A DNA stretch of 64,000 bases from a virus: positions 1 to 64,000 of the IMG/VR virus record IMGVR_UViG_3300050016_000171; one strand, written 5' to 3'. This document shows positions 1,332-26,005 of this stretch, piece by piece. The notes under the pieces are model-generated. The model worked only from the letters and a program-made list of their open reading frames with translations, was not told where the DNA came from and did not search any database. The translations under genes and the position numbers were made by a program. Position 1 is the stretch's first letter, and each line of letters begins with the position of its first letter.

Positions 1332-1390
1332 TCGCAGCACGCCCTACCGCAGTACAATAGATGTTGCAGCACAATCAATGGAGAAAGGAC

Positions 1391-3487
1391 ATGCCTATCA
1401 CAGGCGATGCAAAGCGGGAAGCAAATAAGAAAGCGTGGGCCATCAAGAAGGCGACTCGCGCGTTAACGGAAAAAGTAGAACTTGAGCCAGCACAGGATGT
1501 GCAGGACGTACTCGCGCACGCCGCGCTTATGGACGACGACCGGGTACTGATTCAGGACGCTCGTCCTGAGATCCACTATCGATACAGGTCCGAAGTTCGC
1601 TCATGCACGCAGTTGGCTATGATCTTTCTCGGCATCATGCCGGAACGCGACGAGGAAGAGGAAGACAAGAAAAAGAAAAAGAAACGTGTGCTGAAGCCCT
1701 GCTCAGCCAAGATATTGGGTCGACGCGTCACGTTCGACGAGTGGCTTGAACTCCGCGATAAGGCACGCAAGAATTTGTTTTGGCTGTGTTATGAACTGTT
1801 GCGGCTCCGCTCCTTGAATCAAAGGGTGCACGGGCCTGTGTGCGACATGTTCGTCAAGAAGGACTTCGACGGGGTGTACTACGAGGGTTATACGCTTGAG
1901 GATATGCGTGAAGCGATTCACCGTTTCCCTCGCGAGAAGCGCATGCTGCTTCTGTTTCCTCGCGGTTTCTACAAGACGGTTATCAATTGCGCGGATTGCG
2001 TACAGTGGTTCTTGAACGCTCCAGATTGTATGATCTCGATTCTGTCGGGTACGGAAGAGTTGGCCGACGACTTTTTGGGAGAAGTTAAGAAACGGTTCAA
2101 TCTTCAGAGTAACGAAGACCCTACAGACTTTCATCTTTTGTTTCCTGAGTACATCTTGACCGGCATTAAGGGCACGTCGAATGAGGACATGTGGTGCCCC
2201 GCGGCGATCAATCACCAGAAGGACGCGTCTCTCTGGGTCCGCTCGATCAAGCAAGGTATCTCAGGTAAGCACGCCGACGTCCGTAAGATGGACGACGTTG
2301 TGACCAACTCGAACTCGGAAAACGAGGACGCGCGCAAATCCCTCAAGGCTAAGATCGATTCCTCGAAGTTCATCGTTGGCGGTCACGGCTTCACAGACAT
2401 TGTTGGAACCCGCTATTTTAGCGGCAAGGTTCCAGACTATTACGGCACTTTGATTGGGGCCGCGTCCGAAACCAACCCCTTGAAGGAGTATTGCCGGGGT
2501 GTTTGGACGGTCAAAGCTGGCTTCGAGAAAGTCAACATTCATGATCTTGAAGAGCACATGGTTGATCTTCTGTTTCCCGAGAAGATCGGCGAGGGCTTCA
2601 ACGAGTTGATGGCCGAACTCGGAACGACCGACGACGAAGAGCGTCAATTCCGAAACCAGAAATTGAATGATCCAACCGATGCTGAAATTGTAGATCCTTT
2701 CAGGATTACGTTTGACATAGATGTGCTCAAGCACCATGAATACTCGGGTCTGTATCGAGTCGATCCCCGCACGGAAGGCGACATCTTCGTCACCGGTGAC
2801 TGGGCCTATTCAGACAACAAATGGTCCGACTGGTCGGTGCTGGTTGCGGGCCGAACCTTTAAGCGCGCGAGCGACGGCAAGTGGGGATTCATTATTCTTG
2901 AGGTGAAGTTCGGAAAGTGGAAGTACTCCGAATTGGCTTTCCAGATCGTGATGTTCGCGAAGAAGTGGAATCCCAAGAAAGTCATGCTAGAAGAGATCAC
3001 AGGGGGCGACATCCTGAAGAGGGAGATCGCGTACCGCTGCATGATCCATGAGTATTCGTTTCAGCCTCTCATGATGAAGCCCGATCAGTCCAAGGGCGCC
3101 AAGAAGAACCGCATCAAGCAACTCGAAATTCTTCTCAACGACGATCTTATGTTCTTTGTCGGCGGCGACTGGATCGAAGAGACATTCAAGCAGTTCGTGC
3201 AGTACAAGGGTGAGAAGAGTACGAAGGCCCGCAAGGACGACATCCCGGACGCGATTGGGTACTTGCATCAGTTCCTTCCGACAAGCCTTCCTAGCCCAGA
3301 GATGGCAGCCCAGATGAAAGCGGCGCAAGATAAAGCCATGCGGGAGCACATGAAGAACGCAATTTTCGGCGGCGGGCAGAGCGCGTCAAGTCTCGCGTGG
3401 TCGGCAGTTCAGACAGCCGAACAGAAAGAATCACGAAACACCCCGTTCAATATTCCGGGGATCAGACCCAATAGGGGGAGAGCGTAG
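1391..3487 (+). CDS. terL: terminase large subunit
   Basis: Walker A-like LLFPRGFYKT, Walker B-like KMDDVV, RNase H-like VTGDWAYSD and DDIPDA; GAAAGGAC RBS before ATG 1391; directly upstream of the portal. Confidence 0.9.
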   Translation: MPITGDAKREANKKAWAIKKATRALTEKVELEPAQDVQDVLAHAALMDDDRVLIQDARPEIHYRYRSEVRSCTQLAMIFLGIMPERDEEEEDKKKKKKRVLKPCSAKILGRRVTFDEWLELRDKARKNLFWLCYELLRLRSLNQRVHGPVCDMFVKKDFDGVYYEGYTLEDMREAIHRFPREKRMLLLFPRGFYKTVINCADCVQWFLNAPDCMISILSGTEELADDFLGEVKKRFNLQSNEDPTDFHLLFPEYILTGIKGTSNEDMWCPAAINHQKDASLWVRSIKQGISGKHADVRKMDDVVTNSNSENEDARKSLKAKIDSSKFIVGGHGFTDIVGTRYFSGKVPDYYGTLIGAASETNPLKEYCRGVWTVKAGFEKVNIHDLEEHMVDLLFPEKIGEGFNELMAELGTTDDEERQFRNQKLNDPTDAEIVDPFRITFDIDVLKHHEYSGLYRVDPRTEGDIFVTGDWAYSDNKWSDWSVLVAGRTFKRASDGKWGFIILEVKFGKWKYSELAFQIVMFAKKWNPKKVMLEEITGGDILKREIAYRCMIHEYSFQPLMMKPDQSKGAKKNRIKQLEILLNDDLMFFVGGDWIEETFKQFVQYKGEKSTKARKDDIPDAIGYLHQFLPTSLPSPEMAAQMKAAQDKAMREHMKNAIFGGGQSASSLAWSAVQTAEQKESRNTPFNIPGIRPNRGRA

Positions 3488-5607
3488 TGTATAACGAAGA
3501 GAAACTTAATGCCGCGCGCGCGACCCTCCAAGAGCGGGTGCTGACACCCATCGGCGAAATTCACACAGAGGATATGAAGAGGGACGAAGATACAGGGACG
3601 ATGCAGTTTGTCGATGAAGCGGCCTTGAAACTCGTTCTTGACGACGCCAATACCTGCGCCACGTATATCAACGTGAACCAGTGGGCGTCGGGTTGGACTC
3701 TCTCGGACGTGATCTATCAGTCGCCCGCCTCGGCGAGCGCCTTTGACGGCGGCAACGTGGCTCAGGCCAACGTCCCTAAGTTTACGGTCAGTAACCACCT
3801 GAGTTCCATCGTCCCGAAGATCATGGGCGGAATCTTTTACGAAGATCCCCCGTTCCTTCTGCGCCCCATGCCGGACACGGATGAGGATACGGTCAAGGTC
3901 AAGACTGCGATCTATTCCGAACAGCTTTGGGAGATGAAGTTCGAAGAAGAAACCGAACGCCTGCTGGATCAGATGGGTCTCTTAGGGACGTGTATCGCCA
4001 AGTGGGGATACGTCGAGTACACCAAGAAAACGAAGCGTTACGTCCGCATCGACGATCCCCTGACGATTGATATGCCATCTGGCGTGCAGCAACAGGAGAC
4101 ACCGGAGTCCGACGAGTTCAAAACCGTTCTCGACGACAGTCTCGTTTCGCACCCTTGGCTCAAGTACTGCGACATTCGTACGGTGATGGTTGACCCATCG
4201 TGCCGCTACGGCGACATTCGTCGCGCGCACTACGTCATCTATCGCGACTACGCGACGTGGACAGATCTGGATCATCTGCGCGGCATCGACGGATACAATA
4301 TCCCGACCGAAGCGGAATTGAGGGCTCTTTTCTTGTCCAACCCTTCGACGGGTGCGGACAACATCAGTTTGACGCTGCCCGAAGGCATGCGTGGTTATTT
4401 GCAGCACGCTGTTCCGCGAAGCTATAAGACGACCGCGGACCCGACCGGGAACGCCCTTGAAATCCTCGAACGGTGGGACAACGAGAAGGTTATCGTTGTG
4501 TTGTGCTTTAATGGTCACAACGTCCTCATCAGAAACGAGGCGAATCCGTACGGCAAGCTTCCATTCCTGAGCGCAAACTGGCGCAATATCCCAGACGCGT
4601 TCTACGGGCAGGGGCTGGGCCAACTCATAGGAAGTGAGCAGCTGGTTGAACAGGGCATCACGAACATCGCCCTCGACTTGCTCGCCTATGGTTTGCAGCC
4701 GACCGCGATTCGTAAGAAGGGCTTCAACACTCCGACGCAGAACATCCGCTGGAAGCAGGGCGGCATCATCGACGTCGATGAAGATGTGGACAAGGCGTTC
4801 AAGTTCCTGACAATGCCCCCGGTCCCCGGCGAAGCTTGGACATTCATTCAGCAGGCCCAGAGTGCGGGCGCAGCGACATCAGGCGCCAACGAACAGGTTG
4901 TGCAGGGTGCAGGCGGCATGGGCAACAAGGCGACAGGTATGCGCTCCGGCACCGGAGCGGCGGCTGTCGTACAGGCCAACGCGTCGCGTTTGGACGGCCC
5001 GACAGGAAGGTTCGTTCGGCAGATTTTCATTCCGTGGCTATACATCATGGACGAACTGAACAACGATTGCCTCCCGACTTCTGTTATGCGGAAGATCGCC
5101 GGTCAGGTAATGGCGAAGACCTACAAGTTGGATCAGTTCAAACTACGCAACGCCAAGATGGAGTACGAAGTTCTGGCTGGCACGAAGCTGGGCGCTAAGA
5201 AGGAAATGGCGCAGTTCCTGCCGATCATGTTGCAGATCTTCAACAACCCGACCTTCACGCAGGACTTGGCCGCAGCCGGATACATTTTCGATCCAGTCGC
5301 GATCTTCCGTGCTTTTGCGGATGCAGCAGGCTGGAAGTTCTCTCAGGCTTTCTTGAAGAAGATGACGCCGGAGCAAATGGCAACGGCGAAGTCCAACACC
5401 AAGGCAGCCCTCATGCAAATGCAGTTGCAGGCAAAGGGCCAGTCTCAACAGGCGCAGTTCGAGCACGAAGAGACGATGGAAGATTCGAAGCAACTCGGCA
5501 AGGCCGGGAACGAAGTCCTCCGTCAGTCTATCGAGCAAGCCACCACGCCCGAGGAAGTTCAGGGCGAGCCCGGCGGTTCGGGGTTCGGTTCCACGCAAGC
5601 AATCTAA
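3487..5607 (+). CDS. portal protein (podovirus/P22-like)
   Basis: 706 aa, follows terL with overlapping TAG/GTG; portal-like RNEANPYGKLPF...PDAFYGQGLG segment and Gln-rich C-terminal coiled coil. Confidence 0.85.
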   Translation: MYNEEKLNAARATLQERVLTPIGEIHTEDMKRDEDTGTMQFVDEAALKLVLDDANTCATYINVNQWASGWTLSDVIYQSPASASAFDGGNVAQANVPKFTVSNHLSSIVPKIMGGIFYEDPPFLLRPMPDTDEDTVKVKTAIYSEQLWEMKFEEETERLLDQMGLLGTCIAKWGYVEYTKKTKRYVRIDDPLTIDMPSGVQQQETPESDEFKTVLDDSLVSHPWLKYCDIRTVMVDPSCRYGDIRRAHYVIYRDYATWTDLDHLRGIDGYNIPTEAELRALFLSNPSTGADNISLTLPEGMRGYLQHAVPRSYKTTADPTGNALEILERWDNEKVIVVLCFNGHNVLIRNEANPYGKLPFLSANWRNIPDAFYGQGLGQLIGSEQLVEQGITNIALDLLAYGLQPTAIRKKGFNTPTQNIRWKQGGIIDVDEDVDKAFKFLTMPPVPGEAWTFIQQAQSAGAATSGANEQVVQGAGGMGNKATGMRSGTGAAAVVQANASRLDGPTGRFVRQIFIPWLYIMDELNNDCLPTSVMRKIAGQVMAKTYKLDQFKLRNAKMEYEVLAGTKLGAKKEMAQFLPIMLQIFNNPTFTQDLAAAGYIFDPVAIFRAFADAAGWKFSQAFLKKMTPEQMATAKSNTKAALMQMQLQAKGQSQQAQFEHEETMEDSKQLGKAGNEVLRQSIEQATTPEEVQGEPGGSGFGSTQAI

Positions 5608-8774: not shown

Positions 8775-9413
8775 ATGTTTGTTTATCTGATTACGAATAG
8801 CATCAACGGAAAGAAGTATGTAGGTCAGCACTCCGGAAATGACCTGGATAAGTACTGGAGTCATTGTGTCGCCCACGCTTTAAGAGGCAGCAGTGATAAG
8901 CCGTATCTGTACAATGCCGTCCGAAAATACAGACCTGAAAATCTCTGTATTAAACCCCTCGTAATAGTTGGGACTAAATGGGAAATGGATTTGTATGAGA
9001 AAGGGATGATAAAAGCTCTTAACACCCGAAAGCCGTTTGGATATAATATCACAGAAGGCGGAGACGGCGTTCTTGGTTTGAGGCATTCCGAAGAATCAAA
9101 TCAGAAAAACAGAGAAGCGCATTTAGGTCGAAAAGACTCTCCTGAGACCATAGAGAAAAAGAGAGCGGTATGGGTTGGGCGCAAACATACGGAAGAGACT
9201 AAATTAAAAATGTCTCTACATGTTAAATCAGAAGAACACCGAAAAAAGATTTCAATTGCGAAGATGGGGAACACAGCAAGACTGGGTATGAAAAATACAA
9301 CACACTCTAGGCGTCCTAGGTCTGTTGAAGTGAGACTGAAAATGTCTGAGGCGCAAAAGCGTCGCAGAGAAAGAGAAAGGCAAGACGATGGCAATACAGT
9401 TGGCAGGCGGTAA
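8775..9413 (+). CDS. free-standing GIY-YIG homing endonuclease with NUMOD3 repeats
   Basis: FVYLITNSINGKKYVGQ, GYN motif, repeats such as GRKHTEETKLKMS and KSEEHRKKIS; AT-richer than its neighbours. Confidence 0.9.
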   Translation: MFVYLITNSINGKKYVGQHSGNDLDKYWSHCVAHALRGSSDKPYLYNAVRKYRPENLCIKPLVIVGTKWEMDLYEKGMIKALNTRKPFGYNITEGGDGVLGLRHSEESNQKNREAHLGRKDSPETIEKKRAVWVGRKHTEETKLKMSLHVKSEEHRKKISIAKMGNTARLGMKNTTHSRRPRSVEVRLKMSEAQKRRRERERQDDGNTVGRR

Positions 9414-12293: not shown

Positions 12294-13346
12294 ATGCCTA
12301 CGGCCATTAATCTTTTGTCGAACGTGGGAGTTGCGGTTTTGGCGGGCTCCACAATCGTCAACACAGGTAACACGGTTCTCAATGGTGATTTGGATTTAAG
12401 TCCGGGCAGTGTCGTATCGGGTTTTCCTCCCGGCATCGTGACCGGCGCACAGCACGTTGACGATCCGACCGCTGTTCAGTCTCAACTTGATCGGACGACT
12501 GCGTACAACCAAGCAGCCGCCGCTTCGCCTGCCACCCCTATAGCGTCCGCTTTGGACGCTGTGACTCTCAACGCAGGTATATACTCAGCGGGTACGTTCT
12601 CGCTCGCGGGTGGCACTCTCACGCTGGACGCGCAGGGCAACGCAAACGCCGTCTGGATCTTCCAGATGTCAACTACGCTCATCACCGCGGCGGGCTCGAC
12701 CGTTCGAATTATCAACGGGGGTTCGGCACTGAATGTTTTCTGGCAAGTGGGCAGTTCGGCGACAATAGGCGCCAACAACACTTTTCTGGGGGCAATTCTC
12801 GCAGCGGCTTCGATTACACTGACCCCAAGCGGCACCACGGTTACAGGTCATTTGCTTGCCTCCGCTGAAGTCTCCCTTGGCGACGCTGAAGTTATCTTGC
12901 CCGCAGCAACAACGTATTTGATTTCAGGCAACGCGGGTCACGCGGGCGTGACCGTCAATTTGACGGGGGCGGCGACGGGAACCACCACGTCAGACATTTT
13001 GGGCAACTATCAGTTCACGGAACTCGTCAACGGAACTTATACCGTCACACCGGTTCTTTTGGGGTATGCGTTCGTCCCCGTTAACCGTTCGCCAGTCATC
13101 AATGGCGCGAACCAGACGGGCGCGAATTTCGTAGCGACTCTCTTGGCGTACAGCGTCCCCGATGACAGGGATTATTCTGTGTTCCCCAATACCGCTATCG
13201 ATGTTCAGGGCACGGAGACTTATGTGGTCCCTACCCATCCGAGCCGTACAGAGCCCGTTGACAGTCGAGAGAATAAACCTGTTGACAGTCGTAAGTCACC
13301 AAATATCCCGGAGAATTCGAGAACGAATCCTCCCTTCGAGAGTTAA
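12294..13346 (+). CDS. DUF3494 (IBP-1) ice-binding-domain protein with Ig-like domain
   Basis: [61 protein letters not shown]; then GNYQFTELVNGTYTVTP; no signal peptide. Confidence 0.9.
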   Translation: MPTAINLLSNVGVAVLAGSTIVNTGNTVLNGDLDLSPGSVVSGFPPGIVTGAQHVDDPTAVQSQLDRTTAYNQAAAASPATPIASALDAVTLNAGIYSAGTFSLAGGTLTLDAQGNANAVWIFQMSTTLITAAGSTVRIINGGSALNVFWQVGSSATIGANNTFLGAILAAASITLTPSGTTVTGHLLASAEVSLGDAEVILPAATTYLISGNAGHAGVTVNLTGAATGTTTSDILGNYQFTELVNGTYTVTPVLLGYAFVPVNRSPVINGANQTGANFVATLLAYSVPDDRDYSVFPNTAIDVQGTETYVVPTHPSRTEPVDSRENKPVDSRKSPNIPENSRTNPPFES

Positions 13347-13592
13347 ATGATAAACGTTTCTCTTGTTATCTCCATCGTGAGTTTGGCGGCTTCTGCGTAT
13401 GCGGTGTTTCGCGCGCCCCGCCACGTCACGACGACCCAACAGATCACGACAACCCACGAGACGACCCATACAGTGGCCCTCCCCGCTCCCGCAGTTTCGG
13501 GAAACGCGGTATGCTCCAAGTGCAACAGGGCGGTGGCGCGGTTCGAAGTTCAGGCCGACGCATCTGTGGTTTGCGCAAATTGTAAAAGGTAG
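13347..13592 (+). CDS. small membrane-anchored zinc-ribbon protein
   Basis: N-terminal TM segment; CSKC and CANC motifs. Confidence 0.6.
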   Translation: MINVSLVISIVSLAASAYAVFRAPRHVTTTQQITTTHETTHTVALPAPAVSGNAVCSKCNRAVARFEVQADASVVCANCKR

Positions 13593-13597
13593 GATTC

Positions 13598-15277
13598 ATG
13601 ACCGGACCATTAAATAGTTCGAAACCCACAACCAGCATAATCACTGGCGGCGTCTACAATGCTACGCTACCGGCCCCTCAGGATAAACAAGCCTGCGCAT
13701 TGCAGTTGGACTCCGCGGGAAACCTGAAGGTAAACGTTATCGTTGGTGGCGGTGGTGGTGGATCAAACGCCTCGGTGGGATTGAACGGCGTACTTGCACC
13801 CACGTCATCGACAGAAATTGGATTCATAGGTTCGGGTGGACTCGAAACTCCAGTCAGTGCAGCCAACCCACTGCCGATTACCGGAAGTATCAGCGCGACG
13901 AACCCCTCAGTCGGCGTGATTGGCGCAACTGCGCCCTCAGACGCCACGCTTCTCGGCGTCATTGATGCCAGCGGCAATTTGCAAGGCAACAGCGCGTCCA
14001 ATCCTGTTCGCACCGATCCCACGGGCACAACGATCCAGCCTGTGTCGGGTACGGTTGCCGTCTCCAACTTTCCGGCATCTCAGGTCGTCGCAGGAAACCT
14101 CACGAACAACAACGCGGTTCCCGGGGCCAACAATATTGGTGTGCTGTCTGCGGAGGCCGTGCCGTCCTACACAGCATTGACTTATAATTCTGGCGATATG
14201 GTTATGCCCGTCACCGATACTCACGGCGCGCTTAACGAAGACTTGCAGGCCGTCGCAGGCGTGGCTCTCGGCGCTACCGCAGTGGTGGCCTATGGCTCTA
14301 CGCCAGCCGCTGTGAACGTGCCCGGCGTGAATGCTTTTGTCACGAATTTTCCCGCTACTCAACCTATTTCGGGTACCGTCACTGCGTTACAGGGCACATC
14401 CCCATGGCTTGTGACTGGTTCGTTTTACCAGTCGGTGCAGCCGATTTCAGGCACGATTGCGATTTCAAACTTCCCGTCAGCCCAATCGGTTACGCAGGGA
14501 ACGTCGCCGTGGGTTGTGAGTGGAACGGTTTCTATTGCTTCTTTTCCTGCACTACAGAACGTTAATCTCACACAGTTGAATAGCGTTGCTTTGGGTTCGC
14601 CGTCCAACTATGGAACCTCGCCGGGCGCTGTTGCTGTGATCGGCGTGAATGCTTTTGTCACGAATCCCGTGGCTGTGACTGGGACTTTCTGGCAAGCTAC
14701 GCAACCTGTGTCGGGTACGATTGCGGCAACGCAATCAGGGACGTGGACTGTCGGTATTTCCGCTTCGCAGACTATCGCAGTTACGAATGCAGGGACATTC
14801 GCTGTGCAGGCCACCCTAGCGGCTGAAACCACAAAAGTCATCGGCACCGTCAATCAAGGCACGTCACCGTGGGTTGTCTCAGGCGCGGTTACAGTTGCCT
14901 CTACAACGATCACAGGCACAGTGGCGACAGTTGCCACACCGTCCACAACCGTGGGCGTGCTCAGCAACGTCCAACAGGCTCTGACGACTTCCATCAACAT
15001 TAAAGCCAGTGCGGGCAGCTTTTACGGATTTGATTGGTTCAACCCCAACGCGGTCACGGTTTACATTTTCATTTACAACACGGCGACTACGCCGGGGACG
15101 ATTGGCGCGACGACGGTCTTGATTTATCAGAAGGGACTTCCGGCAGGCGCAGGTTCGAACATCGAGTTCCCGATGGGGATTCCCTGTTCCGCGGGAATCG
15201 CAATCGCGGTGAGTACGTCTCCAACATCAGCAGCTGCTCCGTCAACAGGTCTGGTTCTCACGACCTTGTATGATTAA
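13598..15277 (+). CDS. fibre-like repeat virion protein
   Basis: Thr/Val/Gly-rich; NFPATQPISGT, QGTSPWVVSG and TGTFWQATQPVS repeats shared with 17183..19246. Confidence 0.65.
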   Translation: MTGPLNSSKPTTSIITGGVYNATLPAPQDKQACALQLDSAGNLKVNVIVGGGGGGSNASVGLNGVLAPTSSTEIGFIGSGGLETPVSAANPLPITGSISATNPSVGVIGATAPSDATLLGVIDASGNLQGNSASNPVRTDPTGTTIQPVSGTVAVSNFPASQVVAGNLTNNNAVPGANNIGVLSAEAVPSYTALTYNSGDMVMPVTDTHGALNEDLQAVAGVALGATAVVAYGSTPAAVNVPGVNAFVTNFPATQPISGTVTALQGTSPWLVTGSFYQSVQPISGTIAISNFPSAQSVTQGTSPWVVSGTVSIASFPALQNVNLTQLNSVALGSPSNYGTSPGAVAVIGVNAFVTNPVAVTGTFWQATQPVSGTIAATQSGTWTVGISASQTIAVTNAGTFAVQATLAAETTKVIGTVNQGTSPWVVSGAVTVASTTITGTVATVATPSTTVGVLSNVQQALTTSINIKASAGSFYGFDWFNPNAVTVYIFIYNTATTPGTIGATTVLIYQKGLPAGAGSNIEFPMGIPCSAGIAIAVSTSPTSAAAPSTGLVLTTLYD

Positions 15278-15288
15278 GGGGAACTGAG

Positions 15289-16062
15289 ATGGCGATTGCA
15301 GTCAACGGGTTGTACACCCCCAATTTCTTTTATAGTTTGGGGCCCGGGCCGGGCAATAACACCGCGACTACAGCCTCCTATAACCAAGCGGCGGGGAACC
15401 TGATTGTGGTTGCTGTTTCTTCTTATGGCAGCCCCAACGACGGCGCTCCGTGGACTGTTACGGACGCGGCGGGGAACACATACGTTGCTGGTACGCGGTT
15501 TGATCCGGGCATCAATCGTGCAGTGCAGTTTTTTTGGGCAAAGAATTGTCTTGGAAACGTCATAAACCAGATAACCGTAAACGCCACGCTTGCCTCCGGG
15601 GGTTTTGCTTTCTTTATATCCATCTGCGCGTGGGACATTTCTGGCGCTGCACTGGTTACCCCTAATTGCGGCGAAGCGATGGGATGGCAAGCTGCTCCCG
15701 TCACATCACCGATAGCAACAGGGGCTGGCGCAGGATCGTCGAATCTGACGACCACCAAGGCCAATGCTATTATTTTAGCATTCGGAACTCAGAATGATTA
15801 TGGCGCCCCTATCGGTACGCGCACGGCACAAACGAGTCCGGCGTATACTTTGGATGGTGTCGATTGGAGTGCTTCCTACGATGCGCTGATTTATGAGCAT
15901 CTTGTTGTCGCAGCGATTCAATCGGGGGTGAGTGTCAATTTCAACACCACAGACACAGCTTCTTCGGGCATCATCGTGGTGGAGGCATTTGCATCAGCGA
16001 CACAACCGTCCGTGGGCGGTCCCATCGAACTGATGATGATGGGTTGTGGAGATCCGAGGTAA
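15289..16062 (+). CDS. beta-rich putative virion/tail protein
   Basis: GNLIVVAVS...VTDAAGNTY beta-sandwich-like pattern; lies in the tail module. Confidence 0.6.
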   Translation: MAIAVNGLYTPNFFYSLGPGPGNNTATTASYNQAAGNLIVVAVSSYGSPNDGAPWTVTDAAGNTYVAGTRFDPGINRAVQFFWAKNCLGNVINQITVNATLASGGFAFFISICAWDISGAALVTPNCGEAMGWQAAPVTSPIATGAGAGSSNLTTTKANAIILAFGTQNDYGAPIGTRTAQTSPAYTLDGVDWSASYDALIYEHLVVAAIQSGVSVNFNTTDTASSGIIVVEAFASATQPSVGGPIELMMMGCGDPR

Positions 16063-16086
16063 TTTTAGATTGAGGAGCAAGCAGCA

Positions 16087-17181
16087 ATGGCTATGACTGT
16101 TTTACCTTTTCTTCCCGTGCCATTTTTAATCGAAGGCGATGGGTCTGCCACATCCGTCAGCTATACGTTGACTTTCACCCCGACGGTTGTGGTTCTCGTC
16201 AGTGCTACGAAAGAGAACCCGCTGGGGGCAGTTTATGGCTCTGTCGATGTCTCCTCGAACATCTCTTCGATCATGCTTGCTGGGAATGTTATCACTTTCA
16301 ATTTTGTTGCGGCGTTCACTGGTAACATTGTAGTCGCGGTCGATTTCAACACGCCGTTGGGTGGTGGCGTCGGCGCGGGCACGGGACAACTGGTCAATCA
16401 GGGCGCGCAGGGCACCATCGCTGCTTCGTGGTTCACGGAACTTACGGACGGCGCATCAGTGCTTGGCGTATCGGCGAACCCACTGTACGTTCAAGGCGCC
16501 ATTTCAAATTTTCCTGCAACTTCTGTCTTCGTGGGCACTGTTCCGAGCACGGCACCAGCCAACACAGCTCTCGTAGGAAGCATTTACAATGCGACGGCTC
16601 CCGTAGCGGCTACGGGCAAAGTGATGCCGCTTCAGTCCAACAGTAACGGAGCCCTGTATGTTGAGGCTACGAGTCGTGAATACACCTATCGCGCGTGTCA
16701 GAGCGCGTTCACTCCGCTCGCCGACGTGGCGATCCCTTTTTTCGTCATTCAAGGTTCTGCGAGCGCGACAGTCAAGATTCGTCACATCAAAATCACCTGG
16801 GCCTGCACTACAGGAAACGCGGCGCCCAACGTGATTCGATTGCGTCGGTACACTGTGATCAGCGGCGGTACACCAGCAGCCATGACTCCGGTTCCTGACG
16901 ACACAACCAATCCGTCGGCAACGGCAGTCGTATCTCAATACACCGTGTTGCCCACAACAGGGACGCCGTACAACGCGGGTGCGACGAGTTCAGAGTATAT
17001 GCAGTGGATTACAAACGCGGCGGGGTTGGTTGGTCCCGTTGCCGTTCAGTGGGAGTTTGGGGTCAACGGCTGTCAGCCGATTGTGCTTCGGGGTACATCT
17101 GAGTTTGCTGGAATTGAAATTTCGGCGGTCGCAGCGGGTGGCCCTCTTATGACTGTGCGCGTATCATGGACAGAGGAATAA
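16087..17181 (+). CDS. putative tail/fibre protein
   Basis: N-terminus resembles that of 17183 (LIEGDGSAT vs LLQGDGAT); ISNFPAT motif. Confidence 0.6.
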   Translation: MAMTVLPFLPVPFLIEGDGSATSVSYTLTFTPTVVVLVSATKENPLGAVYGSVDVSSNISSIMLAGNVITFNFVAAFTGNIVVAVDFNTPLGGGVGAGTGQLVNQGAQGTIAASWFTELTDGASVLGVSANPLYVQGAISNFPATSVFVGTVPSTAPANTALVGSIYNATAPVAATGKVMPLQSNSNGALYVEATSREYTYRACQSAFTPLADVAIPFFVIQGSASATVKIRHIKITWACTTGNAAPNVIRLRRYTVISGGTPAAMTPVPDDTTNPSATAVVSQYTVLPTTGTPYNAGATSSEYMQWITNAAGLVGPVAVQWEFGVNGCQPIVLRGTSEFAGIEISAVAAGGPLMTVRVSWTEE

Positions 17182-17182
17182 A

Positions 17183-19246
17183 ATGGCAATTCGACAGGTA
17201 GTTCCGATCTCGATTCTTTTGCAAGGCGATGGTGCTACGGGCACTTTCGTTTTTTACTTGGGCGATGTTTATCAGATATCTTCGGGTTCGGCAGTGGATT
17301 ATGGTTCGCTGGGTGTTATCCCCACGGGCATCGAAATCCCCAATCCGCCCGCGCCACTAATAAGCGCCACGATAGATGCAGGCGGAAATATTACAATCAC
17401 GTTGGTCAGTCCGATTCCTGCGGGACAGATTTTGAATTTCGTATTGAACCTGCTGTTTAACAGTGGTGATTCAACCCCATTTCCTATACCATTTCCTATT
17501 ACAACTACTATGGTGGAGAACTTTCCAGCGACTCAGCCAGTTTCAATTGTCGCGCCTGTAGCGGTTACGCAATCTACTTCCCCTTGGGTTGTGACTGATG
17601 CCGCAGCCGAAGGATATCTCGCCACAATTGCGGGTGCTATCTCAGCGGGCAAGATAGCAGTCAGCGGAACGATTGCGGCAACGCAGTCTGGTGCGTGGAC
17701 TGTTACCGCTACGAACACCGGAACCTTCGCCGTTCAGGTCACTTCGGGAACGGTTACAACCACGCCTCCGCTCAACGCGACGACGAACATCACACTGTGG
17801 AACACCGTTGCTTTGGGCTCGCCGACCGCCTATGGAACGGCTCCGAGCGGAAACGTCATAGGCGTCAACGCTTTCGTCACAAACTTCCCCGCGACTCAGC
17901 CCGTGTCGATTGCGGCACCTGTAGCGGTAACTGGAACTTTTTGGCAGGCAACGCAACCCGTCAGCGGAACTTTCTGGCAGACAACGCAGCCTGTATCCGG
18001 CATCATCGCGGCGACACAATCAGGGGCTTGGTCCGTCGGCATCACGACATTGGGCCAGCAACTCGCGGCAGCGTCTGTTCCTGTTGTCTTGACAGCCGCC
18101 CAGATTGCGGCACTGACCCCGCTCTCCACGATTGCCGTTTCCAACTTTCCGGCATCTCAGGCCGTGACTGGTACGTTCTGGCAGGCTACACAGCCTGTCT
18201 CTATCGCCACCATGCCGTCCACTCCTGTGACTGGAGTTTTCTGGCAGACGACGCAGCCTGTGTCGGGAACCATTGCGGTTTCGAACTTTCCGGTATCTCA
18301 GGCGGTGACTGGTACATTCTGGCAGACTACTCAGCCGGTCTCTATCGCAACACTTCCTGCTTTGACTGCGGGCACGGCTGTCATCGGTCACGTCATTGTG
18401 GACTCGGCGCCGACCACGGCGGTCACAGGAACGTTCTGGCAGGCCACTCAACCAGTTTCCATTGCATCCATGCCGTCCACCCCTGTTACCGGAGTTTTCT
18501 GGCAGGCAACGCAGCCAGTAGATGGCGCGCTGACGAACAACAACGCTGCGCCTGCTGCGACGCTTCAGGGTGTGCTGGGCGCAATTGCCGAGACCGCTTA
18601 TGCGACAGTCACGTATACGACAGGCGATATGGTTCTGCCCGTCACTGATCTGCACGGCGCGCTCAACACTGATCTACAAGCCATCGGGGGTGTCGCTGTT
18701 GTTGCGGCAACGGCGGGCGTACAGAAAGTGGGTATCGTTGGAAGTGCTGGCACAGTGTTTGACGGCCCTATTACAGCTGCTGGTGCCCCGGCGAACGGTC
18801 TCGCGGTTTTGCACGTATACGAGTCCACTGCACCAGCGTTGACAACAGGTCAATCGGTGGCGGCGCAATGCGATTCTGCGGGCAGTCTGTTTGTCAAGCC
18901 GCTTCGGCGTAGTCAAACTGTCTCTAAAGCCACGACCATTATAACTACAGGAGCCACATCGATTCTGGCCGCGCAGGCGGCGGGTACTTTTGCCGACATA
19001 TCATCCTTGATTGTTTCGGCTGCGGATACCACTTCGCGCAGCCCATTCACTATCACGTTGTCGGATGGTACCAATTCTTATATTTATGACATGGATTCGA
19101 ACGCGTCTGCGGGGTGCCAATTCATGAATCTCGTATTTAACCCGCCGCTTCCCGCAACGTCTGCGGCGACCGCGTGGACGCTCAATTTGAGCGTAGCGAC
19201 GACCGTTCATGTCACAGTTATAGCGATTTTGCAGAAAGCTAGTTAG
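17183..19246 (+). CDS. fibre-like repeat virion protein
   Basis: Seven FWQ[AT]TQPV repeats plus blocks shared with 13598..15277. Confidence 0.65.
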   Translation: MAIRQVVPISILLQGDGATGTFVFYLGDVYQISSGSAVDYGSLGVIPTGIEIPNPPAPLISATIDAGGNITITLVSPIPAGQILNFVLNLLFNSGDSTPFPIPFPITTTMVENFPATQPVSIVAPVAVTQSTSPWVVTDAAAEGYLATIAGAISAGKIAVSGTIAATQSGAWTVTATNTGTFAVQVTSGTVTTTPPLNATTNITLWNTVALGSPTAYGTAPSGNVIGVNAFVTNFPATQPVSIAAPVAVTGTFWQATQPVSGTFWQTTQPVSGIIAATQSGAWSVGITTLGQQLAAASVPVVLTAAQIAALTPLSTIAVSNFPASQAVTGTFWQATQPVSIATMPSTPVTGVFWQTTQPVSGTIAVSNFPVSQAVTGTFWQTTQPVSIATLPALTAGTAVIGHVIVDSAPTTAVTGTFWQATQPVSIASMPSTPVTGVFWQATQPVDGALTNNNAAPAATLQGVLGAIAETAYATVTYTTGDMVLPVTDLHGALNTDLQAIGGVAVVAATAGVQKVGIVGSAGTVFDGPITAAGAPANGLAVLHVYESTAPALTTGQSVAAQCDSAGSLFVKPLRRSQTVSKATTIITTGATSILAAQAAGTFADISSLIVSAADTTSRSPFTITLSDGTNSYIYDMDSNASAGCQFMNLVFNPPLPATSAATAWTLNLSVATTVHVTVIAILQKAS
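17925..18520 (+). repeat. degenerate coding repeats (TG[TV]FWQ[AT]TQPV)
   Basis: Seven imperfect copies of the tt[ct]tggcag...cagcc/caacc motif inside the CDS. Confidence 0.8.
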
Positions 19247-19500: not shown

Positions 19501-20610
19501 ATGCTTAACACACAGAGTACGGTTACGCTGCAACGGATAGTCAATATCGCACTCGCGTTCGGAGACATCGAGCCCGTTTTGAACACTTCGGGTGACTCGT
19601 CCGAACCAGCGTTGACGATTGCCAACGACGTGATGAACGCGATCTGCGGGACGTCCTTCCCGGGCAAGTGGAACGAACTTGTCCTGCCGCCGTTCTATAC
19701 GAACAGTTGGCAGCAGGATTATGCCGTTGTTTATCCCGCGAATTGGACCCCGGGCCAGCCTGCTGCGGGCCAGTCTCTTACGAATCTGGCGTGGCTTACC
19801 CGCGGCATTTGTGTGGACATCAACAGCGATTCCTTCCCCAAACCGTTTCGTGAGGTAGAGGTAGGCCGCGAGTTGCAGCAGAACCCGGGCGCGAACTATA
19901 TCGCGGACATGGGTTCGTCCGGGGGCGGCAATCCTCTTTTCTTAGCCAACTTCTTCCCCAACCACACTCTGTACTACGGCACGTGGGGCGCGCTGAACAA
20001 CGGCACGCAGAGCATCGGTAATAACCCCGGGCCGGGCTCAGCATACACGACCCCCTTGGGGTCGCAGAGCATGCCCTCAAATCCGATTACGCAGATTCAG
20101 GATGCGAACGGAAACTTGCTCGTGCTCACCACTTACGGCATCGAGGGTAGCGCGGCACCGGTCCTTGCGGCGAACTCGCCAGCAGGTACGACGGTCTCCG
20201 GCACCGGCGCAACCACGCAGTGGACGGTTGTCGATCCTTGGGGCCAAGGTTTCCGTATCAATCCTACGCCTTCGCAGACAGGCGCGGTATGGCAGTTCCT
20301 TCTGATCGGTCAGGCTCAGCCGGTTCGGTTCACATCTTTGAGTCAGACGCTGTTTCCGCTCCCAGATCAATACGAACCCAATTTCCGGCAGGGATTCATT
20401 GCGCAGTGCTATCGATATTCGACGGACAGCAAGATCCGCGGCAAGTTCAAAGATGAGTGGCAACTTTGGTTGGCGTCTATGGTGGAATTGCGCGCGAAAC
20501 AGGATCGTGAATTGGAAGAGAACATCTTCGTCCCCGACCGCGGTATCATGGGCGGTCAACAGCGTCGTGCCGGACTGTGGCGCGGCGGCGGGTATCCGTA
20601 TCAGTACTAA
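19501..20610 (+). CDS. putative head-tail adaptor / tail tubular protein A-like
   Basis: EPALTIANDVM...KWN...QQDY pattern, paralogous to 20620; upstream of the nozzle gene. Confidence 0.55.
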   Translation: MLNTQSTVTLQRIVNIALAFGDIEPVLNTSGDSSEPALTIANDVMNAICGTSFPGKWNELVLPPFYTNSWQQDYAVVYPANWTPGQPAAGQSLTNLAWLTRGICVDINSDSFPKPFREVEVGRELQQNPGANYIADMGSSGGGNPLFLANFFPNHTLYYGTWGALNNGTQSIGNNPGPGSAYTTPLGSQSMPSNPITQIQDANGNLLVLTTYGIEGSAAPVLAANSPAGTTVSGTGATTQWTVVDPWGQGFRINPTPSQTGAVWQFLLIGQAQPVRFTSLSQTLFPLPDQYEPNFRQGFIAQCYRYSTDSKIRGKFKDEWQLWLASMVELRAKQDRELEENIFVPDRGIMGGQQRRAGLWRGGGYPYQY

Positions 20611-20619
20611 GGACTGACA

Positions 20620-21339
20620 ATGCCATACACGCTTCAAAATACGATTAACTGGGCACAGACGTTCATCGAGTACTCTCCCCTGACTGCGGGAGTCGCCAAC
20701 GAGCCTGCGATCTCAGTCGCGAACATGATTGTTTCGACGATCACGAACGCCCCGCTCACGTGGGCTTGGAATCGCAAGGAATATGGCGGGCTCACCCTCG
20801 TCACTTCGCAACAGGACTATGTGGTCACTATTGCTGACTTCAGCTTCCTCGAAAAAGTCACGCTGACCACTGCGGATGCTAAATATGCCTTTGATGTGAA
20901 GGACGTGTACAACACCACTACTTTGGGTGTTTCGGTTTCGAAACCCGCTGAGCCCAAAGGCGTTTCAGTTCACTTGGTGCAGTACGGCACGAACGTGACT
21001 CTGCGTTTTATGGCAATCCCGGATCAAGCCTACACATCAGTTATCACGTATCAGACTTTGATTCCCGATATGTCTTCGCTGGGCGCGACGTGGCCCCTCC
21101 CCTCACAGTACAAGGATATCTTCAACAACCTTTTCGCCGCGGAAGCGTATCAGGCGGTGGACGACGACCAGCAGGCGCAGCGTTATCGCATGCGCGGCGT
21201 GGCGGCTCTTCTGGCTAAGGCCGAGGGCTTGAGCGAAATGCAGCGCAACTCTGTACTGGCCCAGTTCTTGGTTCGCGGCAGTCAGACGCAGGCCCAGCAA
21301 CTTCGGACCCAGCAGGGCACACAGGCACGCGGACAATAA
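20620..21339 (+). CDS. putative head-tail adaptor / tail tubular protein A-like
   Basis: EPAISVANMIV...WAWN...QQDY and PDQAY motif typical of podovirus adaptors. Confidence 0.6.
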   Translation: MPYTLQNTINWAQTFIEYSPLTAGVANEPAISVANMIVSTITNAPLTWAWNRKEYGGLTLVTSQQDYVVTIADFSFLEKVTLTTADAKYAFDVKDVYNTTTLGVSVSKPAEPKGVSVHLVQYGTNVTLRFMAIPDQAYTSVITYQTLIPDMSSLGATWPLPSQYKDIFNNLFAAEAYQAVDDDQQAQRYRMRGVAALLAKAEGLSEMQRNSVLAQFLVRGSQTQAQQLRTQQGTQARGQ

Positions 21340-24300
21340 TGACGAATTTACTCGAAGTCTCCGGCGCACAGCCCCAGAAACAGCCCAAGTATGTTCCGCT
21401 GTTTATGGACAAACAGTTCACCGGTCTGTACACACAGCGTTCCGTGTTGCACGACCCATCCGACATCGCGACTGCGCGATTTTACGGCGGTCGGCCCGAT
21501 GCTTTGTGGGCAGGATCAAACGTCGAGTTGACGAACTTGCTGACGCTCGCGCGTCGGCCCGGCCTCAGTCCTTTCTCAGGCGCTATCTATCCCACAACGC
21601 CAGATCGTGCGTTTTCGTTTCAGACAGCATTGGGCCAAATTCAAGTTATCATTGATACGGGCGATTCGCCGACATTTGTTTTAACGGCTGTCTCGGCTGT
21701 GTCCGCAGGAGTCAGTGGTACGTATACTGGTACTATCACTGGCGGCGCCGCGGGCCCGGCGCAATTCCCGAACGGCGCATACGCAGGCTTGATCTTTCTT
21801 ATCACTGGTTTTGATCTGCCGCAGAACAACGGAACGTTTGTTTGTATTTCGTCCACCGGGACGCAGTTGGTTCTCGCGAACATCAATGCCGCATTGGATA
21901 CACATGCCGGGACCGCCCTCACCGCAGGCGGGGTTTGGTACGACACGCAGAGTCCATCTGCGAGCGTTCCCCCTCAGCTTATTTTCGCAAAGTCTGTGGG
22001 CGCGGGTCAGACAGCATTTGTGGCCGTGAACGGAGTGTTGTATTTCGGAGATGGCGTTGACACGAACGTTTATACGCCCAACGGACCCAATGGAATTATT
22101 TGGGATTGGGGCATCGCTGCTCCTTTGAATCAACCCAACGTTCTCATTACGGAAAGCGGCGCTTCGGCAGTGGTGTGGCAGGCCAGCTCCGTGTATTCGA
22201 CGATGGGCCTTGTCCTTGATAGCAACGGTAACATCCAACAGCTTTACACAGTGAACGCCGACACCTCGAACCCGACTTCGCGATATGGACTTTCGTCCAA
22301 CGGTCAGCCGGTTTGGAACCAGTCAACAGCGGGCACTACGAGCGATGGTAGTGTGACGTGGACGAACGAAGGTCCGATCACCGAGTGGCAAGGATCGACC
22401 ATCTATCAACCCGGTCAGCCAATTTACGATCCCGGCACGATGTGCATTTTCATTATGTCACAAAGTTCTCAGCGAACTTCGGGTTCCGTCCGTCCGAACT
22501 TCAACGCGGTTTTCGCTCCCGGACAGGGCGGTCCTTTCGTCGGGGATGGGGATGATACGAAGTGGCAGAACATCGGTAAGGTTGGCGCGACACCCTCAAT
22601 GGTTCAACCGTGGAAGGCTACCACAGTGGAGGCCGTGTACAACTTGCCCGCGAGCGGCACGCGTCCGAAATATCCCAACAGCGCGATTATCGAGCCCACG
22701 TTGGTTCTTCCGCCTCCTGCGGGACAGCTAGTATATTTGCAAGTTGCTACGACTTCGGGTACAACTGGTAGCGGAGCCAACGCGCCCACGTGGGGAACGG
22801 CCCCGGGATTCCAAACATACGACGGTCAACTGGGTTGGACGATGTTGAGCAATGCGACATGGCATTCGTCAACCCCTTATACTCAGTGGAGCACCGGCCT
22901 AGCTATTTTCTCGGTAATCGTTGACAGCAATGGTAACTTTCAGGTTTGTACGACAACCGGACTCTCCGGCCAGCATCAGCCCGGCACCGCAGGCGTCGGC
23001 CCATGGAATACTTTGTACGGCGGCGTCACGAACGACGGTTCTGTTATCTGGACCTGCGTCGGCCAGAGCATGACTTGGAACACAAACACGATTTGGTATT
23101 TGCCGATCAACGGATTCGCGCCCCCGAGTAAATCGCAACCCTACGGTTCTTCGGCGGTCATCGACAGTAACGGCAACATAGAATTCGTTTTGGAGTCCGG
23201 TCTGTCAAACACCGTGGCTCCGTCGTGGGGCACGCAGGGCACGCAGACAATTGATAACGCCATCACGTGGTACAACGACGGCGTTGCTTTGACGAACTCT
23301 CTTTCGTGGAAGCTGGGCTATGTTTACGCCTATTCGTACGAGTCGCGTCTCACGACAGATCCCTCGAACACGGTCGCGCCTCCGGGGTTTCCGACCCCAC
23401 TAGGCGTACCTGTGGGTTCTGAGTTGGGCGACATTTCAACTGCGTCCCCGGTCTACACCATTACTGGCGCCAACACCGGCGCGGTTAACACGATTTCTGG
23501 TATCGGCTCCCTGAATCCGGCAGTCGATACGATCATCATTTGGCGTTCCGCGGACGGCGGTGGCCCCAACAACATGTTCTTTCTGACCGAGATCCCGAAC
23601 CCCCCTCCGCTGTCGAAAACGGTTCCGGGCAACTGGTCGTTCAACGATTATTTGCCGGACGTAGCTACGGCGATTTATCCGGGCTTGGACAACTTGATCC
23701 CGGCTCCGATTGACGACGAAAATAACCAGCCGCCTTCGACGTTCTTGCCGATGGTGTACAACTTCGAGCGCATCTGGGGAGCGGACGGCGCAAAGGTTAT
23801 TTGGAGCGGCGGTCCTGACGTCATCACAGGCAATCCCAACGCTGCGTTCAACCCCATTGATGAGTTTCCGTATCTTGCGACGGTGACGCGCGTCGTGAAA
23901 ACTTCGCAGGGTCTCGTCGTGATGTTGACGGATAGCATCGAGATCATTGCGGGCGGGCCCCTGACGTCATCGTTCTATCCCCTGACGCTGGCTCCGGGAA
24001 TCGGAATGCTAAGTTACAACGCCCTCGACGTTTACATGGGAGAGATCTATTTCTTCAGCTCGGACGGACAGGTCAAGTCTGTCAGTCCGTCCTTGAACGC
24101 GCCGAACTTTGGATTCGCATTGGGTGACAAGTTCGCTGTCATGAACCCCAACGACGTCTATGTGGCGGTTCAACAGTCAGGCATCGATAACTGCATCATG
24201 ATTGCGGACGGCAGCACCGGCTGGTATCGCTGCAATCCCCACCAGATCCCGGGTGGCGCAAACGGGCCGGAGCCGATCTGGTCTCCTTTCGCGAACATCA

Positions 24301-25427
24301 CGAATGGTTGTCAGATGGTTCAGAGCGTGGAAGTGCGCGCGGGAATCAAGAAGCTGCTCGTGGGTGCAACCACGGGCGGCGAACAAATCCTTCAGCGCGA
24401 TCTTTCTATTTTTACAGATGGCGGCTCTTCGCTCAGTCCTTCGCCTATTAACCTATTGACGGCAGCCACATACGGCGTTCTGGCGGGCACCACGATTACG
24501 AACTCTGGTCCTACTACCATCACTGGCGACTTGGGGCTCAGCCCCGGTAGCGCCGTAACGGGCGCGCCCACGGTGACGGGAGCTACGAACATCGACAACC
24601 CGGCTGCGGTTCAGGCCAAGACGGATTTGACTACGGCGTACACCCAAGCTGCCGCGTATCCCGGAGCGACGATTATTCCGACAGAGTTGGGCGGCACGTC
24701 TCTCGGGCCCGGAGTCTATACGAGCGCGTCGGGTACATTCTCCATAACGACGGGAACCCTGACCCTCAACGCCGGTGGCGACCCCAATGCCTTTTGGATC
24801 TTCCAAATGGCGACTACTTTGGTGACGGGCACAGGCACCTCCGTAGTTCTGACCGACAGTGCGCAGTCTCTTAATGTGTTCTGGCAAGTCGGCAGTTCTG
24901 CTACGATTGGCGTCAGTTCGACTTTTGTGGGAACCATACTCGCGCTCACATCTATTTCTGTGAATACAAGTGCCACAGTGACCGGGCGATTGCTGGCTCG
25001 GAATGGCGCAGTGACGATGTTGAGTAACGGCGTTACGGTATCCACATCAACTGTTGTGGGCACGATGTATGACGCCAACTTCACGATGGGCAGCATCGTG
25101 TTGGCTCATCCGGGACAGATAGCTGCTTTGAAATTCCTTGAGATGGACATGTCGGGAGTTTCGTATCGGCCCGTAGTGAGTTGTCTCTTGAACGAGATTG
25201 CTGGTACGTTTACGCCCATGGCGTTGATTCCGCAGTTTGATCCACCGTCGATTTACGGGGCGACTCTTTCGCCGACGAGTTATTCGCCGAACCGATATTA
25301 CTTCGCGTCTACGGGAAAGTTGGCGCGTTGCCGTCATCTTCAAATCAACGTGGACTTTGGCATGACTCCGAATCAGGACATGATCTATAATCTTTGCATT
25401 TTTGGCCGCCTTTTCGTAGAATTTTAG
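21339..25427 (+). CDS. tail nozzle / tubular protein B-like protein with inserted DUF3494 domain
   Basis: 1362 aa after the adaptor; propeller-like core ([28 protein letters not shown]); DGxVxW repeats; DUF3494 at about 24444-25045. Confidence 0.7.
25394..25422 (+). promoter_or_regulatory. sigma70-type promoter for the EndoVII gene
   Basis: TTGCAT-17 bp-TAGAAT inside the 3' end of the nozzle gene. Confidence 0.55.
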
Positions 25428-25446
25428 GGTTTGTAGCTACAAAGTC

Positions 25447-25493
25447 GGGGAGTGCCAGACACACTCCCCTTCTATCCTTTGTCTGGAAGGATA
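25447..25493 (+). promoter_or_regulatory. two-hairpin kissing-loop leader, copy 2
   Basis: GGGGAGTG-[CCAGACA]-CACTCCCC then TATCCTT-[TGTCTGG]-AAGGATA; loops are exact reverse complements; covers the GGAAGGA RBS. Confidence 0.8.
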
Positions 25494-25495
25494 AC

Positions 25496-26005
25496 ATGAA
25501 GAAACTAACAACGCACTGCAAACGCGGTCACGAGTTTACTCCCGATAATACGTACATTGCACCGAAGGGCGGGCAGCGCCACTGCAAGGCTTGTCGAGAA
25601 ATTGTTTGGGCGGGCGACCCAAACAGATTGCAAAGAAGTCGGGATTATCAGAAGAAATGGGCGGCAGATAAGAGAACGGGCTATTCTCTGTACGGTCGAA
25701 AATTCGATCTGAAAAAGTTTTATGGTCTCACGGTTGAAAGATACGTTGAGATGTTCGAGGCGCAAGGCGGCAAATGCGCGATCTGTCTTCGACCAGAATC
25801 CGCGATTACTAAATACGGTCAGGTTAGATGGTTGTCGGTTGACCACGATCATGCCTGTTGTCCCGGAAAGGTATCGTGCGGCAAATGCATACGTAGGTTG
25901 CTTTGTCATTTTTGTAATCACGCTCTGGGTTTGTTTCACGACGACCCCGAACTTCTGGCCCGAGCGATAACTTATATCGGAGAATTTAGAGGAACGCGTG
26001 GCTGA
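25496..26005 (+). CDS. free-standing endonuclease VII-family (HNH-like) homing endonuclease
   Basis: [14 protein letters not shown]...CKAC N-terminal module; YGLT...QGGKCAIC...VDHDH...LLCHFCN. Real start is ATG 25496. Confidence 0.88.

Follow-up and report, generated by a model that had tools for sequence, protein, structure and literature searches.

The tail nozzle protein of a soil podophage, identified by its predicted fold, carries a complete DUF3494 domain inserted as a cassette. The domain is best read as an exchangeable adhesion head on the virion, the surface it recognizes being one that may or may not include ice (probability about 0.6). The window, i.e. the whole stretch of DNA analysed, comprises 64,000 nucleotides of the IMG/VR virus record IMGVR_UViG_3300050016_000171. 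Its plus strand encodes a terminase, an SU10-type portal and the structural module, and its minus strand encodes helicases, an RNA ligase and a family A DNA polymerase. The phage is best explained as a roughly 100-kb soil podophage related to Tunturi_3, a 97.6-kb podovirus with a host from the Acidobacteriota, isolated from Finnish tundra soil (PMC11924767). The features discussed below are listed in Table 1.

Table 1. Location of the nozzle gene, its inserted cassette and associated genes in the window
Feature	Position	Strand	Basis
Terminase	1361-3487	+	
Portal gene	3487..5607	+	PF23899 SU10_portal, E 2e-21
Second DUF3494 protein, 350 aa	12294..13346	+	PF11999, E 6e-48, aa 15-200
Adaptor-like gene	20620..21339	+	PF24175 SU10_adaptor, E 1.4e-5, 26.1 bits, just below the cut-off of 27
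Tail nozzle gene, 1362 aa	21339..25427	+	Single ORF; platform, seven-bladed beta-propeller and inserted modules
DUF3494 cassette with linkers, aa 1029-1240	24423..25058	+	Bounds set against insert-less homologues
N-side linker, aa 1029-1036, Ser/Pro-rich	24423..24446	+	Sequence; AF2 pLDDT <50, model residues 371-391
DUF3494 / PF11999 beta-solenoid domain, aa 1047-1233	24477..25037	+	Pfam, PDB, AF2/Foldseek
C-side linker, aa 1235-1240, Ser/Thr/Val-rich	25041..25058	+	Sequence; AF2 pLDDT <50, model residues 570-580

The Pfam profile PF11999 (Ice_binding, DUF3494) matches aa 1047-1233 of the nozzle protein over its full length (positions 1-208 of 208, E 5.7e-54), and the score of 183.4 bits is well above the curated cut-off of 28.7 bits. 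The original prediction had placed a complete DUF3494 domain at 24444-25045; this region translates to the sequence quoted there, and the quoted flanks are correct and lie inside the single 1362-aa ORF. The linkers are short and rich in Ser, Thr and Pro; the predicted coordinates are slightly narrow for the cassette with its linkers. A phmmer search of the PDB returned exclusively DUF3494 ice-binding proteins, led by EfcIBP (6eio, E 2e-42) and AnpIBP (7bwx, E 1.5e-28). The AF2 model of aa 660-1362 has a mean pLDDT of 80.6, the nozzle parts being confident and the solenoid moderate (pLDDT 35-83 in the insert). In this model the insert forms stacked short strands of a right-handed beta-solenoid, with a long alpha-helix alongside (aa 1088-1105, model residues 429-446). 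Foldseek matched the model to 6eio and 7bwx with a probability of 1.00, a target TM of 0.72-0.80 and 35-40% identity, and the search returned both DUF3494 structures and nozzle chains. The inserted domain contains 20% Thr and many small residues. The single-domain proteins EfcIBP (6EIO) and AnpIBP (7BWX/7BWY) likewise belong to PF11999 along the whole profile and share the solenoid-and-helix fold. These two are secreted as free proteins by organisms of cold habitats, and their ice activity has been measured, whereas the nozzle copy is a leaderless internal insert in a soil phage and belongs to a mainly viral group. Lying at aa 1047-1233 of 1362, the domain is internal, and neither a signal peptide nor a surface anchor accompanies it.

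The product of the 1362-aa ORF is, by its modelled fold, a podophage tail nozzle, as had been predicted. The fold was assessed on an insert-less homologue, P0013 (1075 aa), which is 66% identical to the nozzle ORF in the conserved core part (aa 680-1030) and whose model, built with 109 aligned sequences, has a pLDDT of 88.4. VIA-align aligned this model (residues 17-1075) with the full chains of the Pa223, crAss001, P22 gp10, SU10 gp17 and T7 gp12 proteins with Z 19-27 and rmsd 2.8-3.9 over 400-550 residues. Podophage nozzle and muzzle proteins were also the top Foldseek matches of the P0013 model, with E down to 7e-15 (cyanophage A4, Pa223, SU10 gp17, crAss001, P22 gp10 and T7 gp12), and the C-terminal half of the nozzle ORF product itself matches nozzles in Foldseek. 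The P0013 model contains the split platform beta-sandwich and the seven-bladed beta-propeller that the nozzle family shares, over the whole chain, with SU10 gp17 (7Z47/7Z4B), P22 gp10 (8EAP), T7 gp12 (6R21/7EY7) and the crAss001 muzzle (7QOL). Similarity of the nozzle protein to solved podophage nozzles was not detectable at the level of sequence, either in the PDB search or in the profile alignment with SU10 gp17. In the latter, hhalign gave an insignificant match of 23 columns (probability 0.7%), which falls on the SU10 fibre-dock loop and is consistent with the position of the insert at most. No solved nozzle chain came up with a DUF3494 match when the PDB was searched by sequence. The gene lies in the tail module of a genome with a podophage portal, beside the adaptor-like gene, which ends where the nozzle gene begins and is kept in 49 related loci. 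This agrees with the predicted position directly after the adaptor, the adaptor family match itself being weak (Table 1).

The only homologue of the carrier protein in a cultured phage is gp19 of Tunturiibacter phage Tunturi_3 (PP885686; 12001-15411, 1136 aa). It is 30-39% identical to the nozzle in blocks at the N-terminus, the propeller and the C-terminus, lacks the DUF3494 insert and has no Pfam match. Its GenBank label, 'head decoration protein', is probably wrong, as the modelled fold of the family is that of a tail nozzle. A partial PHROG match of the nozzle under study, also labelled 'head decoration', was likewise treated as a mislabel given the nozzle fold. The source of this match is the middle of the nozzle gene (22150-23320, aa ~270-660), a run of repeats of about 60 aa that all contain the motif D-x-N-G-N and another, Trp-containing one, T-x-D-G-S-V-x-W. 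By position this region is the counterpart of the SU10 nozzle domains between propeller blades 2 and 3. The nozzle homologues range from 1023 to 1609 aa and differ in how many repeats they have. One homologue (P0048) is filed at NCBI as a protein of an 'uncultured archaeon' and probably stems from a phage contig that was binned into an archaeal MAG.

The cassette is a clean insertion. A search with the conserved core part of the nozzle (aa 680-1030) found 425 homologues, and among the best 120 of these the FTD-N-GT loop, which is the insertion site, is uninterrupted in 113. The alignment of Tunturi_3 gp19 continues directly from one flank of the site to the other, and the two nearest relatives, P0004 (86% identity over aa 680-1030) and P0005 (83%), both lack the insert. 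The read-through in these homologues bears out the predicted insertion between two parts of a nozzle. In the P0013 model the last propeller strand comprises residues 935-941 and is followed by the FTD-N-GT loop (942-951), the later strands belonging to the C-terminal sheet. WD40 propellers align to residues 60-945 of the model in VIA-align; since this alignment ends within the loop, the insertion loop is taken to be the exit of the propeller.

The position of this exit on the virion can be approached by analogy with SU10, in which the chain passes out of the propeller at blade 1 and goes on to complete the platform domain (PMC9509320). Blades 1-3 are those far from the tail axis, and a loop to which the short tail fibre docks lies close to the C-terminus, on the margin of blade 1 (PMC9509320). 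Ig-like domains of the SU10 nozzle are likewise extra modules in propeller loops (PMC9509320). By this comparison the cassette would sit on the outer rim of the nozzle, at blade 1, near the position of the SU10 short-fibre dock. In the AF2 model two stretches with pLDDT <50 fall exactly on the junctions of the insert, and these are consistent with flexible tethers. Solved nozzles are hexamers; by analogy the present one would encircle the tail channel as a hexamer bound to the adaptor, and about six copies of the cassette would ring the tail of each virion. Because of the hexameric state of the solved nozzles, the outward position of the corresponding SU10 blade and the low-confidence linkers, display in several copies on the tail, as originally proposed, is a reasonable expectation, and display of the domain on the virion is a well-supported prediction from the comparison with known nozzles.

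Direct inspection of the junctions, together with Pfam, shows that DUF3494 enters the nozzle family at four or more places. At the first site (C1), within the FTD-N-GT loop, the domain is carried by the nozzle under study and by L097, L083 (= P0011) and L104. The second (C2) lies about 20 residues upstream of C1 and leaves the loop motif intact after the insert; it is occupied in L089, P0100, P0107 and P0114. A third (C3), before the GWYR motif of the propeller, was found in L126, and an N-terminal site (aa 98-296) in L105, L108 and L106. The distribution of the cassette among the relatives is patchy. On a tree of the core (155 rows, 655 columns, insert columns left out) the C-terminal inserts need six state changes, and on its starred branches insert-bearing pairs stand beside insert-less sisters. 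The C1 loop also accepts other material: P0035 holds an unrelated insert of 201 aa exactly in this loop (aa 1049-1262), which has no Pfam match and found just unnamed viral clusters in the ESM Atlas. Kinship of the P0035 insert with the alternative heads of the appendage family described below was considered and rejected, as the scores were non-significant.

A second DUF3494 protein of 350 aa is encoded upstream in the window. Its DUF3494 domain is N-terminal, begins at residue 4 and is not preceded by a signal peptide; a CarboxypepD_reg-like Ig domain follows, and the protein ends in a conserved C-terminal tail. The two DUF3494 copies are 55% identical. In view of this identity, and of a placement of the second copy that is unsupported in the IQ-TREE tree described below, a recent duplication between them was rejected. 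The C-terminal 150 aa of the 350-aa protein (Ig domain and tail) recur under other heads in 16 related loci, and the alternative heads include CHB_HEX_C and Fn3-like modules. On sequence grounds the protein is assigned to a modular appendage family with swappable heads. The tail (13150-13346; homologues in L112, L120, L084, L121 and L114) starts with Y-S-V-P-D-x-R and contains repeated P-V-D-S-R / P-Q-N-S-R motifs. It is a candidate for a virion-anchoring peptide. A DUF3494 head on Ig-like domains is also known from SfIBP_1 of Shewanella frigidimarina (6BG8) and from fibrillar adhesins, for which PF11999 is among the listed adhesive domains (10.1101/2020.12.07.414375). Those proteins are placed on the bacterial cell surface by secretion and anchoring signals, whereas the presumed anchor of the 350-aa protein is its phage-specific C-terminal tail. 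The genes at 12294-19246, up to a conserved gene at 19501, are mosaic, and relatives share only pieces of them. No Pfam or PHROG matches were found for the genes between the 350-aa DUF3494 protein and the gene at 19501. This phage group probably has its hypervariable fibre or receptor-binding cassette here.

The domain is also built into other virion proteins. When IMG/VR was scanned with a profile of phage DUF3494 domains, at least 93 viral stretches matched. DUF3494 occurs in tail sheath proteins in L176 (Pfam Phage_sheath_1 and 1C) and L146 (phrog_2839, E 1e-38), in a tail fibre with DUF2793 and tail-fibre PHROGs in L205, and in L196 in a 2070-aa protein with five He_PIG Ig domains. Some proteins contain two or three copies of the domain, and others are small and leaderless and resemble the 350-aa protein. 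In L143, L153 and L192 the DUF3494 genes have N-termini resembling signal peptides. Not every viral PF11999 gene is a virion module, and some may be secreted or host-derived. None of the DUF3494-bearing proteins has a PHROG match running through the domain, and the domain was unmatched by tblastn in 50,697 records of cultured phages. On Arctic viral contigs PF11999 genes were previously read as host-protecting auxiliary metabolic genes for cold adaptation (PMC11515562). The Pfam family is the same, but here the domain is part of structural proteins of the virion (nozzle, sheath and fibre).

Bacterial and archaeal relatives of the domain were found in the GTDB species genomes at 50-64% identity, in Acidimicrobiia, Streptomyces, Streptosporangium, Catenulispora, Chloroflexota, Terriglobia and Bathyarchaeota. 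Domain trees were computed with the 80 closest species representatives as the only bacterial sample. In the FastTree tree (138 rows) the viral and bacterial labels need two changes, a value reached by none of 500 shuffles, and the nozzle insert and the copy in the 350-aa protein fall into an all-viral group of nine rows with 98% support. A mixture-model IQ-TREE tree (65 rows) again separates the labels, but gives the separating branch no support (SH-aLRT 0); over both trees the labels change 1-2 times, which 0 of 500 shuffles matched. The IQ-TREE tree groups the C1 inserts and one C2 insert at 95% support and does not firmly place the copy in the 350-aa protein. With moderate confidence, the trees suggest that the cassettes form a pool passed around chiefly between phages. 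The structural module also contains free-standing GIY-YIG/NUMOD3 and EndoVII-type endonuclease genes (8775-9413 and 25394-26005), homologues of which occupy many different positions in related phages. Such endonucleases may drive the mosaicism of the phage group. The adjacent EndoVII-type endonuclease was considered as the agent that spreads the cassette and was rejected, as cassette-bearing relatives have this gene elsewhere or lack it. Flanking repeats and a target-site duplication were looked for at the cassette and none were found.

An adhesive use of the fold, one of the options of the original prediction, best fits the swapping of the cassette, which behaves in the manner of a host-adsorption module. 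Under the proposed mechanism the DUF3494 beta-solenoid, spliced by two short flexible Ser/Thr/Pro linkers into the propeller-exit loop ahead of the C-terminal half of the platform, would serve as an exchangeable head rather than a fixed part of the nozzle, coming and going among close relatives and using several entry sites and carrier proteins. Six tethered heads would ring the tail at the outer rim of the nozzle. Their flat, Thr-rich face would most likely make weak, multivalent contact with an extended surface rich in hydroxyl groups; host exopolysaccharide, a cell-surface glycan, the soil matrix and ice are candidates. The heads could thereby keep the short tail in contact with the cell until the fibres commit. 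To our knowledge, all functionally characterised members of the DUF3494 fold bind ice, and for this reason the suggestion of a different ligand rests on the distribution of the domain.

That the virion truly binds ice, the six heads and the 350-aa protein adsorbing the particle to ice crystal faces, is a less likely but live reading, and several lines of evidence point towards it. The best matches of the domain are proteins with measured ice activity: EfcIBP, about 40% identical structurally, then AnpIBP and IBPv. The Thr content and the abundance of small residues also agree with it. The sole cultured relative of the phage was obtained from Arctic tundra, and the permafrost peat of Stordalen Mire is the source of its metagenomic kin (PMC11924767). 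Among the close bacterial relatives of the domain, several stem from MAGs of palsa, bog, fen, permafrost and Antarctic samples, and a cold-adaptive role for PF11999 on Arctic viral contigs had been put forward (PMC11515562). The distribution of the family speaks against it. PF11999 is among the abundant Pfams across soils generally (10.1101/2023.11.02.563126), is found in ice-free sites, the tropics and hot springs (PMC12337378, PMC7783341) and in caves, lake sediment and hydrothermal vents (PMC12337378), and soils of Indiana, Colorado and Washington have also yielded Tunturi_3 relatives (PMC11924767). One of the IMG sample numbers looked up, 3300050821, denotes one of the five largest IMG soil data sets. 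Equally close relatives of the domain (50-62% identity) occur in Streptomyces, Streptosporangium, Catenulispora and Danish soil MAGs. Streptomyces and the other soil taxa with close relatives are not known as cold specialists, and their domains are as close as that of the proven ice binder. Ice activity cannot be read from a DUF3494 sequence, and the cassette exchanges with unrelated heads at the same positions, as is usual for host-adsorption modules. Ice as the ligand, which the original prediction had put forward, is not supported by the present evidence: PF11999 is common in soils and occurs in ice-free habitats, and the domain has close relatives in the three genera named above. An ice-binding virion might be kept in liquid veins together with its hosts, or be locally shielded from recrystallisation damage during freezing and thawing of the soil; a general inhibition of recrystallisation would need a bulk concentration that six to a dozen tethered copies cannot reach.

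It is improbable that the domain binds nothing and is a passenger or structural decoration, tolerated in permissive loops, where it would add bulk or stability or have spread near homing endonucleases. The insertion loops do take unrelated inserts (as in P0035), GIY-YIG and EndoVII-type endonuclease genes are dispersed through the structural modules of the phage group, and most relatives lack the domain. Against this, the domain is intact and full-length, with core positions conserved even where copies share only 35-40% identity (Pfam E 1e-25 to 1e-59), and four kinds of virion protein have taken it up, several times over, at exposed positions; moreover, the endonuclease genes are unlinked to the cassette in relatives, and, as noted above, no flanking repeats or target-site duplication were found. 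An assembly chimera or mis-called ORF joining a bacterial DUF3494 gene to a phage gene, weighed since the window is a metagenomic assembly and with nothing found in its favour, is refuted by the same in-frame junction in independent contigs of other samples with diverged DNA (L097, L083 and L104), by an identical protein on record (P0003) and by the GC content of the insert (0.578), which matches that of the nozzle gene (0.56).

Swapping of receptor-binding and decoration modules is a known trait of phage tail proteins. In the papers searched, the ice-binding fold is not described as a virion module, the only related report being that of PF11999 on Arctic viral contigs (PMC11515562). New for this nozzle family are the four entry points, the main site at the propeller exit and the modular second DUF3494 protein. 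Phage-borne DUF3494 cassettes in nozzles, sheaths and fibres could, with lower probability, mark soil phage virions that adhere to ice, and hence a cold adaptation of the virus particle and not of the host. If the heads do bind ice, this would be cold adaptation at the level of the virus and would matter for how viruses persist and carbon is cycled in thawing soils. Any other ligand of the heads would be the first non-ice ligand for the huge 'ice-binding-like' family of temperate soils, and the PF11999 counts of metagenomes, now used as a marker of temperature stress or read as host-protecting auxiliary genes, would need re-reading. The nozzle family offers a natural experiment in this respect, with near-identical carriers that have or lack the cassette and with the cassette at four sites.
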